Sequence record: MH706966
Length of the DNA stretch: 54,655 nt
DNA from: Enterobacteria phage mEp021
Strand: one strand, 5' to 3'
Part shown: positions 3,997-42,146 of the stretch, one piece after another
How positions within the stretch are numbered: position 1 is the stretch's first letter
Layout of the letters: each line of letters opens with the position of its first letter
Notes under the pieces: model-generated
What the model was told of the DNA's origin: nothing
Seen by the model: only the letters and a program-made list of their open reading frames with translations
The model's database searches: none
Program-made: the position numbers and the translations under genes

Positions 3997-4586
3997 AATT
4001 CCAACCCCGTTTCCACGTTGAGTTTTTCAATCTCAAATACTGGTTTATCAGGAAGCAGCCCGTTATTTTTACGGTATTCGTTCAGGCGGCTGTCAAAGTC
4101 AAACGCCAAATCATTAGCGTGACCGAATCGCCCAGGTTTAAACAGTGAGTAAAAGTTAACCCCGTGCCTATTTGGATCAACGCAAAGCGTTTCATCAATC
4201 ACCATTAGGCGAAGAGTACGAGAAAGATAATTCCACGGGATACCAGTCTCCGCACTAATGTCACGCATACGCTTTTTAACGCTGTAGTCACCAAATAACG
4301 ACGCAACACGCTCACGACGTTCAGCATATAACTGTTTAATACGATAGCCCAGCAGACGGCGGCGGCGTCCAAAACATGTATATACGCGCTCGACGATACC
4401 GTTTTTTATTAAGTGTTTAATTGTCTCAGGAAGTAACCCATCTTTATCATATCCAGCTAATAACCCCGTTTTATTGCGCAACTGGTGCATTGTTGCGATG
4501 CCATCAAGTTCAAGGATATTGATAACTTTTGTTTCAAGTTCAGCGCTCATTGTTTTTAGCCTCGTTTTAAACGCGATAACAGCCAC
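3993..4586 (-). CDS. Hypothetical protein (197 aa) downstream of the helicase
   Basis: Long ORF; no Walker motif seen, so not called as a helicase loader. Confidence 0.5.
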   Translation of the reverse strand: MAVIAFKTRLKTMSAELETKVINILELDGIATMHQLRNKTGLLAGYDKDGLLPETIKHLIKNGIVERVYTCFGRRRRLLGYRIKQLYAERRERVASLFGDYSVKKRMRDISAETGIPWNYLSRTLRLMVIDETLCVDPNRHGVNFYSLFKPGRFGHANDLAFDFDSRLNEYRKNNGLLPDKPVFEIEKLNVETGLEL

Positions 4587-11166: not shown

Positions 11167-11814
11167 ATGAAAACAAAATGGTATGACTTAGCAAAACAAC
11201 TCATGCGGGCGCAGGGCATGAGCCAGGATTCATTGGCTGATCTTATGGGGATCACAAAAGGCGGCCTTTCTCACTGGCTGAACGGTAGACGTGAGCCAAA
11301 TCTTGAAGATATTGCGCGTATCATGCGGGCGCTTGGGCGTCGGCAGTTCACTGTCACACATGATGGAATGGTCATTGATGATTCTGTTTCTAACACGTTG
11401 CCGGGAGCGCCGCCGCGTGATTTAGGTAGTTACCCGGTTGTTGACTGGAAGGATGTAGTAAACAATATGGAAGATGCAAGGCGATCAACATTACCACACG
11501 TTACGACTAGCGTTATTTGTTCAGATGATAGTTATTGGCTGGTAGCTAAAGGCGAATCAATGAACGCGCCGCAAGGATTGAGTATACCAGCGGGGACGAT
11601 GATACTTGTCGATCCGCACGCGCCAGCTATTGACGGCAAACTGGTTATAGCCCAATTGGAGGAGGGGCAGGTACCGACGTTTAAACAGTTGATTATTGAT
11701 GGAGGTCAAAGACTTTTGCGTTCGCTCAATCCGCTGTATCCGCCAATCCCTATGAATCCAGAATCAAAAATTATAGGCGTGGTGGTTGATGCGAAGATCG
11801 TAAACCTGCCATAA
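11167..11814 (+). CDS. cI: CI-type repressor (HTH plus S24 LexA-like peptidase domain)
   Basis: 215 aa; N-terminal HTH QDSLADLMGITKGGLSHWLNGRREP; C-terminal AKGESM...DGKLVIAQL S24 autocleavage pattern. Confidence 0.85.
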   Translation: MKTKWYDLAKQLMRAQGMSQDSLADLMGITKGGLSHWLNGRREPNLEDIARIMRALGRRQFTVTHDGMVIDDSVSNTLPGAPPRDLGSYPVVDWKDVVNNMEDARRSTLPHVTTSVICSDDSYWLVAKGESMNAPQGLSIPAGTMILVDPHAPAIDGKLVIAQLEEGQVPTFKQLIIDGGQRLLRSLNPLYPPIPMNPESKIIGVVVDAKIVNLP

Positions 11815-11845: not shown

Positions 11846-12223
11846 CCGTAAAAACACCAAAACGTAAACAGAAAACATGTTTTATCATTTAAATATCAAT
11901 GAGATAGAAAATTTTTTAAAAAAGTATACAAAATGGATTGACTCTGTATATCACGGGGCGTATATTGCGAATCAAAGGAAGGAGGCAGGAAACAAAAAAG
12001 CACCTTCCAGGCACTTTAAAAAATCAGGCTTAACACCTTGTCAACCGTGGAGTAACTCCCCGATGGGGGACCGAAAGCGGCACTGATAACAAGGCGCATG
12101 GGGTGTTTAAAGCGTTACACCCCCCACGAAACCGCACGCAAGGCGACGAGTCAGCTTGCTTGGAGTGAGCAAGGTCACACCGGAAACGGCGATGATTGCG
12201 GGATTAGTTGAAAGATGTTAAGC

Positions 12224-35799: not shown

Positions 35800-36276
35800 A
35801 TGTCTCAGACTTGTGATAAAGGTTCGTTCTTAGGCCGCGACGTTGCCGTATTTTACGCTATCGCTTGCCCTAATGCGAAACCTGAAGAAAGCGCTTATAA
35901 AGCGTTAGGCATGATGCGTGGCAAATCTCTTTCCGTAGAATGGGAAACCGCAGACGCCACCGCTGATAAATCAGCAGACTACACCAAAGAATCACTGGTA
36001 ACTTACAAATCTGTTGCCTTCTCAGGTGACGGCGTATCACGCACCGAAGAGATCTACAATCAGAAAGCACTTAAACGCCACGTTATTAACCCTGGCGAAA
36101 CAACTGGTGCGCAGCCTTACGTCTGGTTGAAACTCGTTTCCCCGCTCGACGTAACAGAAGGCCCGTTTCTTTGCACCTCCTTTAAAGAAGAGGATCCGCA
36201 CGACGATGTGTCCACTTGGTCCATTGAATGCGAAAGCGCTGGCAAAGTCACGGTAGGTGACGTTCCGTCAGTGTAA
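35800..36276 (+). CDS. Major tail protein (by position and size)
   Basis: 158 aa; strong SD; followed by a terminator hairpin. Confidence 0.45.
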   Translation: MSQTCDKGSFLGRDVAVFYAIACPNAKPEESAYKALGMMRGKSLSVEWETADATADKSADYTKESLVTYKSVAFSGDGVSRTEEIYNQKALKRHVINPGETTGAQPYVWLKLVSPLDVTEGPFLCTSFKEEDPHDDVSTWSIECESAGKVTVGDVPSV

Positions 36277-36293
36277 CAATAAATATTAACATC

Positions 36294-36320
36294 GGGGCCA
36301 TTTGGCCCCTTTATTTTTTA
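36294..36320 (+). terminator. Rho-independent terminator after the major tail gene
   Basis: Hairpin ggggcc-attt-ggcccc followed by tttatttttta. Confidence 0.7.
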
Positions 36321-36331
36321 TGGTGACAGTT

Positions 36332-37012
36332 ATGATTCATGTTCGAACCGGACAATTTGCGGTCGTTGTTGATGGCAGACGTTACGAGTTCAACCCATGC
36401 TTTGCTGCAATGGCTAAGATCGGCAGTGACAGGGAACTGGTTGAATATTTCGCAACTGTGCACGGTGGCAAATACCCACAGCGTTTGCCAACGGATCCAG
36501 ACCTCCGCAATCGCATTATGGCGCGTTGTTATGGTGAGTTAGTGCAAACGTCCATCCACGTCCTGAAATGTTGCTCAGAATGCGAAATAGGCCAGTTATT
36601 GGGCGAATGCAGCTTTACTCCTTCGGGTAAGTTGAGACTGAAACCTGGGTTGATGCCCACCAGCGACGTTATCACACTGGCGCAACACTGCATGTATCAC
36701 GGTTTGATTGGTGACGGACCAGATGAGGACACTGGCGAGGAGCAGGAAGGAGACTATAAACAGACGTTTGACATCCTTGAATACGTTTACTCCGCTGTTG
36801 CTCACCTGGGATTGTCTGAATCTGAAGCATGGGGCATGACAATGACCGGATACAGGGCCGCTGTACGCGCTAAAACGCCACCAGACGAAAGAAACGAGAA
36901 ACGTAAGCCAAACGTTCATATAAATAAACGTGATTATGATGAGCAAATGGAGGCAGCTAAAAGGGTGCTGGAATTGATGAAAAAACGCGAGCAAGAAAAA
37001 GCCCGGGGTTAG
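36332..37012 (+). CDS. Tail assembly chaperone (G/GT-like by position)
   Basis: Position between the major tail gene and the tape measure gene; start moved downstream of the terminator. Confidence 0.4.
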   Translation: MIHVRTGQFAVVVDGRRYEFNPCFAAMAKIGSDRELVEYFATVHGGKYPQRLPTDPDLRNRIMARCYGELVQTSIHVLKCCSECEIGQLLGECSFTPSGKLRLKPGLMPTSDVITLAQHCMYHGLIGDGPDEDTGEEQEGDYKQTFDILEYVYSAVAHLGLSESEAWGMTMTGYRAAVRAKTPPDERNEKRKPNVHINKRDYDEQMEAAKRVLELMKKREQEKARG

Positions 37013-37052
37013 CCGGGCGTTATATGTCGATGATGCTTTTTGATGGTGCCAA

Positions 37053-37469
37053 TTATCTGAACCTTGCTATTTCAATTCTGCCGTTGCCCAAGTCAATGAT
37101 GGCATGATTTTTTATACCCGCGCCGCCTTCGTTAAATATTCTTTCAGCAAATGCGGCTTTATCAGCGTTACACTCATTGGCTATTCTGTTTCTTATTTCA
37201 TCGTTGCCTTCGAATACGACGCCTACAGCAGCCTCCTTCACAAGTCCCCAGTTAAACCATCTTGCGTAAACCGGTTTACCTTCGAAATGATCGTCAATTG
37301 CTTTATAAAAAACCTTGATAGCTGCGGGTTCCTTCTTGAAGATTTTGTGGTATTCGGCAACATTATTAGCTACATCATCGCAGTTTATATTCATCACATC
37401 GTTTGCGTTGGCGTTGAATGCTAAACCTACCATTACCGCCATCACTGCCGCTTTGATTAGCCGTTTCAT
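37053..37469 (-). CDS. Secreted/periplasmic protein of unknown function (moron)
   Basis: 138 aa; N-terminal signal peptide MKRLIKAAVMAVMVGLAFNANA; two Cys; opposite strand to the tail genes; SD gggggtgggg. Confidence 0.55.
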   Translation of the reverse strand: MKRLIKAAVMAVMVGLAFNANANDVMNINCDDVANNVAEYHKIFKKEPAAIKVFYKAIDDHFEGKPVYARWFNWGLVKEAAVGVVFEGNDEIRNRIANECNADKAAFAERIFNEGGAGIKNHAIIDLGNGRIEIARFR

Positions 37470-37482
37470 ACCCCACCCCCGC

Positions 37483-37569
37483 TTATTTTTTGTTTTTAAG
37501 TGCCTTCAGCATTTCTTCGATAAAGTCGGCATAGTGCTCATGCTCGTTGGGTCGGTAGTAGTTTTTCAT
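37483..37569 (-). CDS. Small hydrophilic protein (28 aa), first gene of a two-gene moron operon
   Basis: MKNYYRPNEHEHYADFIEEMLKALKNKK; SD aagagga 7 nt upstream. Confidence 0.35.
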   Translation of the reverse strand: MKNYYRPNEHEHYADFIEEMLKALKNKK

Positions 37570-37725
37570 TTTCTTATCCTCTTTGCTTCCTCCGGTTAAT
37601 CCGACCTTCTAAATCCCTTTACTCTATCCCTTTCCTTTAGCCTCTTTATACAAAATGTATTCGTTGAAGTGAAGCCATTTTGTATAAAATAGAGATCAGT
37701 ATCACACTTTTTACGAGGTTAAATC

Positions 37726-40071
37726 ATGTCCACCAGTTTAGGTACAATTTATTACGAAGTTGATGCAAAAACTGGTCAACTTCTAGTCGCTCAGAGACAG
37801 GCGGATCAGGCTTTTGACAGTATCGAGCGTGGCGCAAAACGCGCTGACCGCCAGGTTAACACGCTTAAAACTTCAATCAAAGCACTATCCAGGGTTATAC
37901 ATCTGCTACTTGCTGCGGAGGCTGTGCGCCAGTTTATTGACATGGCGGAGCAAGCAAAAATGCTTCGTGTCAAAATTAAAATGCTCACAGGTGACGCAGA
38001 GGCCGCAGGACGTGTTTTTGACGGCCTGAAAAAAATATCAAAGGAAACCGGGCAAAGCCTTAAAGACACTGGCGAATTGTGGCAAGGCCTGGCTATTTCA
38101 CTAAAGAATACTTCCGCTACGGAAGGCCAATTGCTCAACCTGGTTGGCACTATTCAGAAGATGGGGGCGTTAGGAGGCGCGTCAGCGGAACAGATGTCTA
38201 ATTCTATGCGCCAGTTCCGCCAGTCTATAGACGGCGGCGTGCTGCGTGCTGAAGAGTTTAACAGCCTGTTAGAGAACACGCCGACCATCGTACAGACAAT
38301 GGCCCGCCATATGGGGTTGTCAATGGGCCAGTTCCGCGCCGAAATGCTGGACGGCAAGATCACGGCTGAAAGGATGGTTAACGCGATTCAGGCAGCTACA
38401 CAGGAAACAAACGAGAAGTTTGCACAGTTGCCGCGCACGTCCGGCAAGGCTATCAATGAGCTTAAAGTTGAGGTGATGGGGCTTGTCGAACAACTTGACG
38501 ATCTTTTCGGCATATCAGATGGCGTTGTATCAGCTATCGACTTAATAACTGGCGGCGTTGAGGGATTAGGTAAAGGCGCTAAATTCGCCGCAACCTGTTT
38601 TAATACACTCAAAACGGCTGGCAGTGAGTTCATAGACATGTTTGACGACGTGGCTGTTAAGGCTGGCGAGGTGGCGGAAGAAATCATTAGAATGGTAACG
38701 CCAATCAAGGCGCTAATGGATGGCTACAAATGGATGAAGGAGATTGTAGGAAAGCAAACAGAAGAATATAACACCAATTATGAGAAGAAATACGGTAAAA
38801 GACTTGGTAAGGGAATGCAATTTTGGGATGATTGGCAGGCCGTACTTAACCAAACAAAAGAAAACAAGGGAACCGACACCGCTGACGACGGCAAGATCAC
38901 CGGATTCGAGCCACCAGTAGATAAGCCAGGAAAACCGAAAAAAGGAAAAAAAGACAAGAAATCTGAAGCTGATCGGCTTGGTGATGAAGGTATAAAAGTG
39001 TCCGACCAGTACAACAAGGACGCCGCCGCTATGCGCAAAGCATTAGAGAACGGCAAGGCCATTGATGCTGCATTCGCCCAGGGCAAAATCACCCTCCTTG
39101 AGTACAAGGCCGCGCAAAAGGGGATAGGCAAGGAACTGAAGGACGAATTGGCACAAATCCCGGTGGAAGAATTGCAAGATAAATGGGCGCACATAGTAAG
39201 CCCAATGGATCAGCTTAAGGGCGAAATTGACCCAATCAAACAGGCGCAGAATGAGTGGGCTGTCAGAAAACAAATGCTATTAGACCTGGGAGCTACAGAA
39301 GCGCAACAGAGACAGGCGCAGTTAGAATATGAGCAACAGATCAGGGATCTGAAGTGGGAGCAATGGCAGGCGCAAAGCGACACAAACAGCCTGATTGGTG
39401 CTTGTGTTAGCGGCCTCAAGGGTGGCATGGGTAATGCGCTTACTGGCCTGTTAAACGGTACTCAATCATTAAGCGAGGTTTTTGCCAACCTGGGAAGCAG
39501 CATACTTAACACCGTAGGCAATAAACTTTCGGAAATAGCCGCTAACTGGATAGCAGATCAATTGATGATGGAAACGCAAAGCAAGGCTACACAGGCAAGT
39601 ACAGCGGCTGGCGCTGTGGCAGCGCAGGGCGAGATTGCTGCGGCAGCGGCCCCGGCAGCGGCTGCGACGGCGGCATCAACTGGCGGTAGCTGGGCGGCGG
39701 CTGGTGCTGCGGCGCTTTCTGCTATCATGTCGCTGGCAACGTCAATTTTTGGCGGCGGTCGTTATAATGGTGGTTCTGTGAATGGTGGCAGTCTGTATCG
39801 CGTAGGGGAACACGGAATACCGGAGCTATTCCAGACGAGCAACGGGCGTCAGTATATGATTCCTGGGGAAAATGGCAGGGTTATTCCTGGCCGCGATCTT
39901 TTCAGTGGTGGCAGCATCAGTATGCCTGTTAACATTACCGTTCAGACCACAAACGGGTTTAGCGAAGAGGACAGTCGCAGATTGCAAGACGCCATGAAAC
40001 GCGTTGCAATGGGAGTAATTAAAGAGCAAAGTTCAAGGCCCGGAGGTCTTATCCAACCACGAAGAAAATAA
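37726..40071 (+). CDS. Tail tape measure protein
   Basis: 781 aa; helical N-terminal two-thirds, glycine/alanine-rich segment, position in the tail module; SD gaggt. Confidence 0.85.
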   Translation: MSTSLGTIYYEVDAKTGQLLVAQRQADQAFDSIERGAKRADRQVNTLKTSIKALSRVIHLLLAAEAVRQFIDMAEQAKMLRVKIKMLTGDAEAAGRVFDGLKKISKETGQSLKDTGELWQGLAISLKNTSATEGQLLNLVGTIQKMGALGGASAEQMSNSMRQFRQSIDGGVLRAEEFNSLLENTPTIVQTMARHMGLSMGQFRAEMLDGKITAERMVNAIQAATQETNEKFAQLPRTSGKAINELKVEVMGLVEQLDDLFGISDGVVSAIDLITGGVEGLGKGAKFAATCFNTLKTAGSEFIDMFDDVAVKAGEVAEEIIRMVTPIKALMDGYKWMKEIVGKQTEEYNTNYEKKYGKRLGKGMQFWDDWQAVLNQTKENKGTDTADDGKITGFEPPVDKPGKPKKGKKDKKSEADRLGDEGIKVSDQYNKDAAAMRKALENGKAIDAAFAQGKITLLEYKAAQKGIGKELKDELAQIPVEELQDKWAHIVSPMDQLKGEIDPIKQAQNEWAVRKQMLLDLGATEAQQRQAQLEYEQQIRDLKWEQWQAQSDTNSLIGACVSGLKGGMGNALTGLLNGTQSLSEVFANLGSSILNTVGNKLSEIAANWIADQLMMETQSKATQASTAAGAVAAQGEIAAAAAPAAAATAASTGGSWAAAGAAALSAIMSLATSIFGGGRYNGGSVNGGSLYRVGEHGIPELFQTSNGRQYMIPGENGRVIPGRDLFSGGSISMPVNITVQTTNGFSEEDSRRLQDAMKRVAMGVIKEQSSRPGGLIQPRRK

Positions 40072-40126: not shown

Positions 40127-41461
40127 TTACGCGGCTTTTATAATTTCTTTATACTTATCTTCCACCATGTTAAAAACCTCTGGTCTGTAGTAGAAAAATT
40201 CGCAACTACCATCAAATTTTACTGGGAAGTTAATTTTGTAATTATTAAGGGTTTTGTGTATCGCGCCTTCTAGTTCATAGATATTTTGTGTCGGACCTTC
40301 TAATGTTTTTACGATATGCAAATCAGGAATCGTTACACCCGCTTTATGTGCGCTACTTAGTATTCTATTTCTTCGTTCGTTTTCCTTAACACTTACCCCT
40401 ACTTTCATTAGCGTTGGTACTTCCAGATCGTCAACCATGATATAAAGTTTGCCGCGTTCGTAGGATAAAAAACCCTTTTTAGCACATTTAGAACAGCCGC
40501 TACCTTCCTTAAGTTTTTGCGGCGTGGTTCGCCACTTATAACCACACACTTTACATAAACACGATACTTTGTTTTTATTCCCTGTTATTTTACCTACCAC
40601 TTTGATATTAGGGTTGATGTTGGCAATGGCTTTTACTTGCTCATCATGTGATATTCTTCGTGCTTGCGATCCTTTTCGTTTCGCACACTTCGGGCAACCA
40701 GTACCTTTTTTAAGGCTGGCTGGAGTAGTTAACCACTCATGACTGCAAGACTTACAGCGGCATAACGTTCTCGTAGTATTGTTAATAATTTTTTCTAATA
40801 CCTCAACGCTAGGACTGGTTTTCGCAATAACTGCAATTTGTTCTTCATGTGATAGTTTGGTGTGTCCGCTACATTTCGGGCAGCCAGTACCATGCTTGAT
40901 GTTGTTGGGAGTTGCTGGCCATTCATGATTGCAAATCTTACATTTGCATAATACTTTTTTTAAACTCGCAGATTAAAAGGGGTTTTATTCAATATTGCTG
41001 TTAACCTTCGCAATAGCTGCAACTTGTTCTTCATGCGTTAATCTTCTATCTGCGCATTTTGGGCAACCTTGCCCGATTTTAAGTGTTTCAGGTCTAGCCA
41101 ACCATTCATGATCACAAACTTTGCAATGGCATAATACCTTTGTTTTATTATTAATAATTACCCCTAACACCTTAATATCAGGATTAACTTTAGCAATAAT
41201 TGCAACCTGTTCTTCGTGTGGTAATGCCCGTTTTTGTGCTCTTTTTAACGCCGCACATTTAGGGCAACCAACACCGCGCTTAAGATCAGCAGGTCTACCA
41301 AACCATTCGTGATTACAAGTTTTGCAGCAGCATGATACTTTTTCCATATTCCCGGTAATTACCCCTATCACCTCGATATTGGGGTTAACTTTTGCAATAG
41401 CGGCAACTTGTTCTTCGTGTGTTAATTTTTTTGTCATAATACCGCTCCTACAATCTTCCAT
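40127..41461 (-). pseudogene. Disrupted paralog of the Zn-ribbon/GIY-YIG-like gene at 7737-9224
   Basis: A single reading frame of about 445 codons carries about five Zn-ribbon modules and an intact C-terminal GIY-YIG-like domain but is interrupted by two in-frame TAA stops (+ strand 40985-40987 and 40973-40975). Confidence 0.55.
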
Positions 41462-41547
41462 TCCGTCCTACATAACTCCTGCCGAACATTACCAACCAGA
41501 TGCTCCAGATCTCCCGCCATGTGTATTTCTCATTCTTCATACCCGCC

Positions 41548-41802
41548 TCACTTATGAGCGCCTTTTACGCCACATAACTTGTTATAAAAATGGTGCTCAA
41601 CGATTAACCAAACCCTCAGATCTTCACTGAACAGCCGCCAATCAGGATTAATGTCAAACTTCCAGCCATAACCATCGCGTAACTTTTTGGGGTTGGCCTC
41701 TTTCTTCAGGAAAGCATTTAATAAGGCTTTTCCCTTTTTGATGATCCGGTCCTGTGCGTTTTTCTGTGCTTTCAGGTTTTTACCAATCGCCACCAATTTC
41801 AT
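41548..41802 (-). CDS. Small protein (84 aa), possibly RelE/YafQ-like toxin fold
   Basis: Lysine-rich N-terminal helices then GYGWKFDINPDWRLFSEDLRVWLIVEHHFYNKL, loosely resembling the YafQ PDW-L-Y pattern from memory; SD gcggggtgg. Confidence 0.3.
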   Translation of the reverse strand: MKLVAIGKNLKAQKNAQDRIIKKGKALLNAFLKKEANPKKLRDGYGWKFDINPDWRLFSEDLRVWLIVEHHFYNKLCGVKGAHK

Positions 41803-41820
41803 AATCCACCCCGCAATCAA

Positions 41821-41976
41821 TTAGTTGACCACTTTCAGGAAGAAATCACAGTATTCATCTTCTTTTGCATTCATCATGAACTGACCGTATTTGAATGCGT
41901 CATCAAAGCCTTTTACAATCGCCACTTCCACCTGTTCGAATGCGTTGTTCAGCATTACCACTACATAGCGTTTCAT
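41821..41976 (-). CDS. Small protein (51 aa), upstream partner of the 84-aa gene
   Basis: MKRYVVVMLNNAFEQVEVAIVKGFDDAFKYGQFMMNAKEDEYCDFFLKVVN; strong SD aaaggagggg 4 nt upstream of the ATG. Confidence 0.4.
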   Translation of the reverse strand: MKRYVVVMLNNAFEQVEVAIVKGFDDAFKYGQFMMNAKEDEYCDFFLKVVN

Positions 41977-42146
41977 GATGCCCCTCCTTTGTTGGTACTG
42001 CTTTCTCTTCTTGCCTCCTATATACATCTTGTTACGTCATGTGTGAAGCCATTTTGTAAACTGGGTATAATTCTTGTGACGAAGTTCTCATTTTTCGCGT
42101 AGAAGCGCGTAAAGATGTATGCAATATGTAACTTATAGGGGGAATC

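Follow-up and report, generated by a model that had tools for sequence, protein, structure and literature searches.

In the temperate coliphage mEp021 a two-gene cassette lies on the minus strand between the DUF6246 and tape measure genes, and this is best explained as a whole by a self-contained moron in a fixed socket that would protect the lysogen at the envelope, an explanation which we regard as evenly poised. The genome examined was the complete 54,655-bp mEp021 (sequence record MH706966; this whole stretch, at its full length, is the window referred to below), the archetype of the mEpimmI group. Judged from the sequence, it is very probable that the genes are real, that the cassette is autonomous and that its product is exported. 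Expression in the lysogen is rated as somewhat probable, and phage exclusion, which is proposed by analogy, is put forward only tentatively as the function. The closest sequenced relatives are mEp010 (93% identity across the region), mEp044, mEp554, mEp515, mEp013 and MagusPhagus. The components of the cassette, in nucleotide (nt) positions of the window, are as follows (aa, amino acids; ORF, open reading frame; SD, Shine–Dalgarno sequence).

36993-37018, minus strand: predicted intrinsic terminator, GCCCGG-CTAACC-CCGGGC (37018-37001) followed by the T run TTTTTCTT, from a terminator scan
37053-37469, minus strand: gene of the 138-aa exported protein, signal-peptide codons 1-22 (37469-37404), mature part 116 aa
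37471-37480, minus strand: G-rich SD of the 138-aa gene, GGGGGTGGGG (GGGGG/GGGG), from the sequence
37483-37569, minus strand: 28-aa gene (pep28), MKNYYRPNEHEHYADFIEEMLKALKNKK, an ORF kept under strong constraint (pN/pS 0.12; see below)
37570-37638, minus strand: 5' leader of the predicted cassette mRNA, purine-rich, about seven GGA motifs, including the SD GAGGA
37645-37673, minus strand: predicted sigma-70-like core promoter, -35 TTCACT (37673-37668), 17-nt spacer, -10 TATAAA (37650-37645)
37646-37657 and 37676-37687: perfect 12-nt inverted repeat, TTATACAAAATG / CATTTTGTATAA, one arm abutting the -35 and the other overlapping the -10
37691-37706, minus strand: CRP-like site, TGTGA-N6-TCTCT, centred about 61 nt upstream of the predicted mRNA start

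The DUF6246 protein was used as a handle to fetch 57 IMG/VR loci, to which GenBank and RefSeq relatives were added. In every mEpimmI-type locus (52/52) the distance from the DUF6246 stop to the tape measure start is 650-1320 bp and is occupied by minus-strand genes only. At least eight kinds of cargo were found in this same slot among the 52 loci, and signal peptides, lipoboxes or transmembrane (TM) helices are present in most of the cargo proteins. The cargo comprises the following.

137-139-aa family, 16 loci
35-aa plus 100-aa membrane-protein pair
116-119-aa signal-peptide family
203-219-aa VasI/TagO-family lipoprotein (Pfam, 2e-16), then a 124-aa lipoprotein (weakly BamE-like) or a 106-aa protein
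165-aa signal-peptide protein
245-aa lipoprotein, and others

In the first exported gene, unrelated mature domains are preceded by the same SD, start codon and, for the greater part, signal-peptide codons, all recognizable despite substitutions. The signal-peptide region through the A-x-A site (AFNANA and variants) is common to three families, and its first half is also common to the VasI-like lipoproteins; homology to TagO-carrying prophages begins at window position 37436. Since the promoter, terminator, SD and signal-peptide codons are kept while the mature cargo is swapped, the cassette appears to be exchanged by recombination within its conserved edges. The exchange can be recent: locus L009 encodes a tape measure protein 99/98/93% identical to that of mEp021, yet carries the membrane-protein pair. 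A distant relative (locus L063) has an empty site, a 24-nt gap with the tail genes abutting. In more distant phages (IMG/VR loci L055-L061 and L065, with DUF6246 proteins 37-50% identical) the slot after DUF6246 holds other accessory genes in either orientation, including Arc/CopG-like ribbon-helix-helix and KilA-N/Bro-like proteins, and this variety suggests that the hotspot is older and wider than the mEpimmI group.

The G+C content of the cassette is 0.42, that of the flanking tail genes 0.49-0.50 and that of the genome 0.458. Presence/absence variation, an own terminator and a distinct base composition, three of the marks by which morons are recognized (Juhala/Hendrix), were found. A preliminary description of this DNA had proposed an opposite-strand moron with an exported-protein gene, and that proposal is borne out by the promoter-like site, the terminator, the low G+C, the swapped cargo and the empty-site relative.

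The 138-aa protein is identical to AXN54182.1, deposited as 'hypothetical protein mEp021_63'. Its n-region is MKRLIK (charge +3), its h-region AAVMAVMVGLAF (12 residues, mean Kyte–Doolittle hydropathy 2.48) and its c-region NANA, with Ala at -3 and -1, followed by NDV. In the mature 116 aa no hydrophobic or TM segment was found (maximum 19-residue Kyte–Doolittle mean 0.72), and the sequence ...GLAFNANA|NDV contains no lipobox ([LVI][ASTVI][GAS]C) and no Cys at +1; other cargo types of the slot, unlike the 138-aa protein, do carry lipoboxes. The charge, the h-region length and the -3/-1 residues make this a textbook Sec/signal peptidase I (SPase I) signal as predicted from the sequence, and the signal peptide noted in the preliminary description therefore withstands a check of its n-, h- and c-regions and of the mature part. 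AFNANA is invariant across 16 homologues, as are C30 and C100, which fits the expectation for a periplasmic disulfide. In two homologues (P0011 and P0012) NA or NANA is duplicated in frame within the c-region (NANANA..., encoded by a GCNAAC repeat); this suggests slippage at a repeat just ahead of the cleavage site, and such duplications are tolerable in a signal-peptide c-region. The AlphaFold2 model consists of five helices and a C-terminal beta hairpin with a mean predicted local distance difference test score (pLDDT) of 77.5; the signal peptide is poorly modelled and the remainder has pLDDT values of 70-94.

No match to the 138-aa protein was found in Pfam, PHROG or NCBIfam, nor were there sequence matches in the PDB or matches in BFVD. 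A search of PADLOC-DB with the 138-aa protein, the 28-aa protein and five further cargo proteins gave no match at E <= 1. A word-indexed search of 5.8 billion proteins returned 17 clusters for the 138-aa protein, all from E. coli or Caudoviricetes, and every homologue whose context was looked up occupies this same slot. For the 138-aa family and the 116-119-aa cargo family, which have their signal peptide in common, a remote relationship was rejected (hhalign probability 0.6%). A lead to EF-hand proteins, given by the repeat proteins P0018 and P0019 (E = 3e-24 and 9e-9) in a full hidden Markov model (HMM) scan of 1.84 billion representatives, was also dropped, because each repeat contributes 4-10 bits and the E-value arises from summing up to 16 near-identical repeats. 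The candidate loop DDHFEGKPVYAR has no Glu/Asp at position 12 and no hydrophobic residue at position 8, and the Pfam EF-hand models gave no match to the 138-aa protein even at E = 10.

Both minus-strand ORFs of the preliminary description were recovered in place (37053-37469, 138 aa; 37483-37569, 28 aa), each with its ribosome site: the G-rich SD listed above for the 138-aa ORF and GAGGA (37581-37577), 7 nt upstream of the start, for the 28-aa ORF. Codon-substitution patterns were expressed as the ratio of non-synonymous to synonymous polymorphism (pN/pS). For 24 distinct nucleotide versions of the 28-aa ORF the pooled ratio is 0.12 in its own frame and 1.0-1.1 in the other same-strand frames; the antisense frame with coinciding wobble positions gives 0.20. 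All indels in this ORF are in frame (NY-Y versus NVNY; C-terminal NKK/NKN versus K). For 14 versions of the 138-aa gene the ratio is 0.20 in frame (0.18 for the mature part) and 1.35-1.9 in the other frames, except for the wobble-matched antisense frame (0.29). A low value in an antisense frame that pairs wobble with wobble is an expected artefact. By these sequence signatures both minus-strand ORFs are real genes.

The consensus of the 27-29-aa family to which the small protein belongs is MKNVNYRPNEHERYADFIEEMLKALKNKN. The 28-aa protein is hydrophilic (grand average of hydropathy -1.49) and has no signal sequence, and is therefore presumably cytoplasmic. In tblastn searches against phages it was found only within this phage group. 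Its gene is present in about two thirds of the loci, ahead of five cargo types (four besides the 138-aa gene); where it is missing, the first cargo gene begins about 45 nt past the -10. The 138-aa gene in turn occurs without it in locus L068. The two ORFs had been described as a pair; both are present in mEp021, but each occurs without the other in relatives, and the pair reading is weakened because the 28-aa gene is an optional, independently distributed module. The exact 28-aa sequence was not found in a 15-billion-protein collection, from which it follows that the gene is unannotated in mEp021.

A leader of about 70 nt is conserved wherever the 28-aa gene occurs. At 37570-37640 (minus strand) it is nearly pure purine, with the last GGA lying inside the SD, and is reminiscent of CsrA-bound leaders. 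The RNA of the leader and small ORF gave no Rfam match and is less folded than its shuffles (z = +1.99), and a structured RNA in either part was rejected on these grounds; from its sequence this region behaves as open mRNA.

The site TTCACT-17-TATAAA is the sole promoter-like site on the minus strand of the intergenic region and would start the mRNA near 37638. About 40 distinct sequences from relatives keep this promoter region. An 11-nt core in the upstream arm of the inverted repeat and a 10-nt stretch in the downstream arm are invariant in relatives, and the intervening 18 nt vary. At the other end of the cassette the terminator hairpin is built into the last codons and stop of the DUF6246 gene, and it spans this stop in all related loci, whatever the cargo. 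On the + strand the tail of the hairpin is weak, so that late transcription could pass. In the CRP-like site TGTGAT is invariant in relatives and the right half has three of five bases; the same bases form the 5' untranslated region of the tape measure gene on the + strand, and the site is given as a lead only.

The 12-mer TTATACAAAATG has four exact copies in the genome, and its 8-nt core ACAAAATG was observed 17 times where 2.3 are expected. Sites of the 12-mer or core lie at 2375, 11924, 12606, 20075/20144, 37646/37676, 42050 and 52948. Some copies of ACAAAATG are ribosome-site/start-codon contexts and others are promoter-like intergenic sites, sometimes inverted pairs. At 11928-11966, beside the gene of a CI-like repressor (11167-11814), the arrangement ACAAAATGG-ATTGACT-17-TATATT puts the motif immediately ahead of the early rightward promoter's -35; it also occurs, reversed, by the leftward promoter beside the repressor gene. 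The 12-nt motif differs at one position from a relaxed DnaA box and also looks like a proximal UP-element subsite. The inverted repeat was not adopted as an operator of the CI-like repressor, the early-promoter motif being single and upstream of the -35.

A second antisense accessory island was noticed at 40127-42146, with the tape measure gene on one side and the minor tail gene on the other. The minus-strand promoter of this island, ACAAAATGG CTTCACA, 17 nt, TATATA, lies near 42065-42020 with a copy of the motif at about 42043-42060, and shares a 17-nt block with the cassette promoter. The island contains the following.

41821-42027: 68-aa ORF preceding the ParE-like toxin
41548-41820: ParE-like toxin
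40985-41461 and 40127-40600: treble-clef zinc-finger/CapR-homology repeat proteins, one with a T5orf172 domain

By sequence the 68-aa ORF and the ParE-like toxin look like a toxin–antitoxin pair. Toxin modules and conflict-system-type domains normally act from the prophage. Activity of the cassette from the prophage is considered likely because the second island, with the shared promoter module, carries a ParE-like toxin and domains of the conflict-system type.

The genes around the cassette are as follows.

35800-36276: tail tube gene (Pfam Phage_tail_2)
36302-37012: DUF6246/phrog_791 gene, occupying the tail-chaperone position
37726-40071, + strand: tape measure gene (Pfam TMP_3, 2e-51)

Of the flanks named in the preliminary description the tape measure gene is therefore confirmed by its domain. 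'Tail chaperone' is a positional call only for the DUF6246 gene (proteins of 226-236 aa in the loci), because no overlapping -1 frameshift extension of the G/GT kind was obvious.

In the proposed mechanism host RNA polymerase would start close to the tape measure start, at the sigma-70-like promoter upstream of it, and read against the tail operon. The transcript would cover the 28-aa cytoplasmic protein and then the 138-aa protein, and would end at the hairpin within the DUF6246 3' end. Sec would export the 138-aa protein, which would be cleaved after NANA to give a 13-kDa helical periplasmic protein, probably with one disulfide. Expression would be independent of late transcription and would probably come from the prophage, so that the lysogen would be protected at the envelope; the most probable form is a block of a post-adsorption step of other phages, as is known for HK97 gp15 from the same slot. 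The term 'lysogenic-conversion factor', used in the preliminary description for the 138-aa protein, is a plausible prior.

Several points weigh against this mechanism. The cassette promoter scores 9/12 to consensus and is missed by a strict consensus scan, because position 6 of its -10 is A; the weight given to it comes from its placement and conservation. Its upstream 12-mer is common to the early rightward promoter, and that promoter has to be off in lysogens. Neither by sequence nor by fold is the 138-aa protein related to any known exclusion or defence protein, and the mEpimmI paper and its supplements do not mention its gene. Under tail-specific exclusion one would expect cargo type to follow tape measure type, and no such covariation was found; mEp021 uses OmpA and mEp010 LamB, yet both carry the same 138-aa protein. 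As the cargo tracks neither tape measure type nor receptor, there is no support for a tail- or receptor-specific exclusion. The group also has proven exclusion lipoproteins elsewhere in the genome (Lpp021 = gp81; PMC11893012).

Two rival explanations concern the ORFs themselves. It is hardly credible that the minus-strand ORFs are chance and that the true genes are the + strand ORFs of some GenBank records (mEp010_98, MagusPhagus CDS0038; window 37104-37424 and 37315-37599). PHANOTATE and Pharokka annotations of relatives do place small + strand ORFs in this interval, but pN/pS is 1.60 in the frame of 37104-37424, and in the frame of the 94-aa ORF 37315-37599 it is 2.98 over the 28-aa gene and 0.29 over the 138-aa gene, the latter being the wobble-matched value and still above that of the true frame. 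These ORFs are not conserved across cargo types, and it is the minus-strand ORFs that possess ribosome sites, a signal peptide and 16 or more homologues. An improbable reading, though a less remote one, makes the 28-aa ORF a leader ORF that tunes translation of the downstream exported-protein gene and not a functional protein. Such a role would suit an ORF that always comes first after a long purine-rich leader, stops 13 nt ahead of the next start and precedes five unrelated cargo types. Its amino-acid sequence, however, is strongly kept, as seen in the low pN/pS, the in-frame indels and the nearly invariant core RYADFIEEMLKALK, and such conservation is rare in a pure leader ORF; the downstream gene, moreover, owns its ribosome site and is present without the 28-aa ORF in many loci. 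That its residues are so strongly conserved speaks for a role of the peptide as such.

The other two rivals accept the genes and differ about their use. The 138-aa protein could be a conversion factor unrelated to phage, either a guard against colicins, type VI secretion system (T6SS) effectors or lysozyme-like enzymes or a Bor/Lom-type fitness or virulence factor. The features of the cassette fit this equally well, one alternative cargo is a VasI/TagO-family (T6SS-associated) lipoprotein and immunity proteins are usually small periplasmic proteins or lipoproteins. These phages are prevalent in human gut E. coli, blood isolates included, and a cargo without covariation with tail or receptor type fits a non-phage target. 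We nevertheless consider it unlikely: the protein has no similarity to any immunity, inhibitor or virulence family, and its family is confined to this phage slot, with no chromosomal or effector-linked copies. Slightly less probable again is an early-lytic unit, switched on with the early promoters at infection or induction and acting in the periplasm, for example by excluding secondary infection as T4 Imm and Sp do. The cassette promoter copies the upstream element and layout of the early rightward promoter (ACAAAATGG, -35, 17-nt spacer, -10), and the perfect inverted repeat brackets its -35 and -10 in an operator-like way, with arm cores that are invariant within a single-immunity group while the bases between them vary. 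Against this, the early promoters have the motif once, upstream of the -35, which is not how a CI-type operator is laid out, and four sister phages do not keep the one dyad that was seen in the right operator (OR) region of mEp021. The second island, with the same promoter module, carries a toxin–antitoxin-like pair, and a cassette transcribed strongly late in infection would run head-on into expression of the tail genes.

Beyond the moron explanation, a broader and rather doubtful proposal is that the slot is a dedicated socket for expression of envelope proteins, made up of a regulated dyad promoter, an optional 28-aa regulatory protein, a recombination joint formed by the shared ribosome site and signal-peptide codons, and an embedded terminator, and that the 138-aa protein is the first of a novel class of periplasmic proteins that inhibit phage genome entry or another envelope attack. 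The mEpimmI phages are reported to be as common as lambdoid phages in a human-faeces collection (PMC11893012), and their accessory genes are almost all uncharacterized. The slot amounts to a small library made by nature, in which at least eight envelope proteins replace one another behind one predicted promoter, and it could be a source of new mechanisms of exclusion or protection. The annotation is also corrected here, the conserved 27-29-aa gene having been omitted or placed on the wrong strand in GenBank records. The records of relatives that omit it put small + strand ORFs over it (mEp010_98, mEp044_93, MagusPhagus CDS0038), and these are probable mis-calls because the codon-substitution patterns favour the minus-strand genes. 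The calls across the 28-aa gene are as follows.

mEp010 (locus L001), 4239-4340, + strand ORF
mEp044 (locus L002), 2640-2819, + strand ORF
MagusPhagus (locus L003), 2755-2859, + strand ORF

Three groups of known systems were compared. P-FimU of Pseudomonas F10-like phages is a defence gene within the tail cluster that acts by altering the envelope (PMC12952977). Like lambda bor and lom, it resembles the cassette in that genes for accessory envelope proteins lie among the late structural genes and are presumed to be active in the prophage; these genes differ in family, host and insertion point, and have no fixed promoter/terminator socket with shared signal-peptide codons. Lpp021 and Lpp010 of the mEpimmI phages, and Cor and Llp of phi80 and T5, are likewise exported envelope proteins of coliphages (PMC11893012), but they have a lipobox and are encoded elsewhere (gp81 in mEp021), whereas the 138-aa protein has the SPase I site NANA|N.

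The nearest parallel is HK97 gene 15, the first-named moron: it is flanked by the chaperone and tape measure genes, it is active in the prophage, and its product, a superinfection exclusion protein, keeps the DNA of superinfecting phage from entering (Juhala 2000; Cumby 2012; PMC3594210). The two share the slot, the character of an add-on absent from relatives, an own promoter-like site or terminator and an envelope product. HK97 gp15 is YebO-like, has 62 aa and resides in the inner membrane, and its gene shares the strand of the tail genes, whereas the mEp021 cassette is antisense, has two genes and has as its main product a protein predicted to be cleaved and soluble in the periplasm. Comparison of gp15 with all ORFs of the slot (blastp, phmmer) gave nothing better than E = 1, and membership of the gp15/YebO family was rejected, there being no homology and the hydrophobic segment ending in an AXA site and not forming an N-terminal TM anchor. 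The kind of element and its position are thus already known from HK97, the 138-aa gene had been deposited as a hypothetical protein, and the view of phage genomes is unchanged, because a tail-operon moron at this position has been known since HK97. What is new, as read from the sequences, is that the slot forms a socket with a constant predicted promoter and terminator into which different exported cargoes fit, the joint lying at the signal peptide; that a 27-29-aa gene, conserved but largely unannotated, has been recognized; and that both antisense islands have a promoter module in common.

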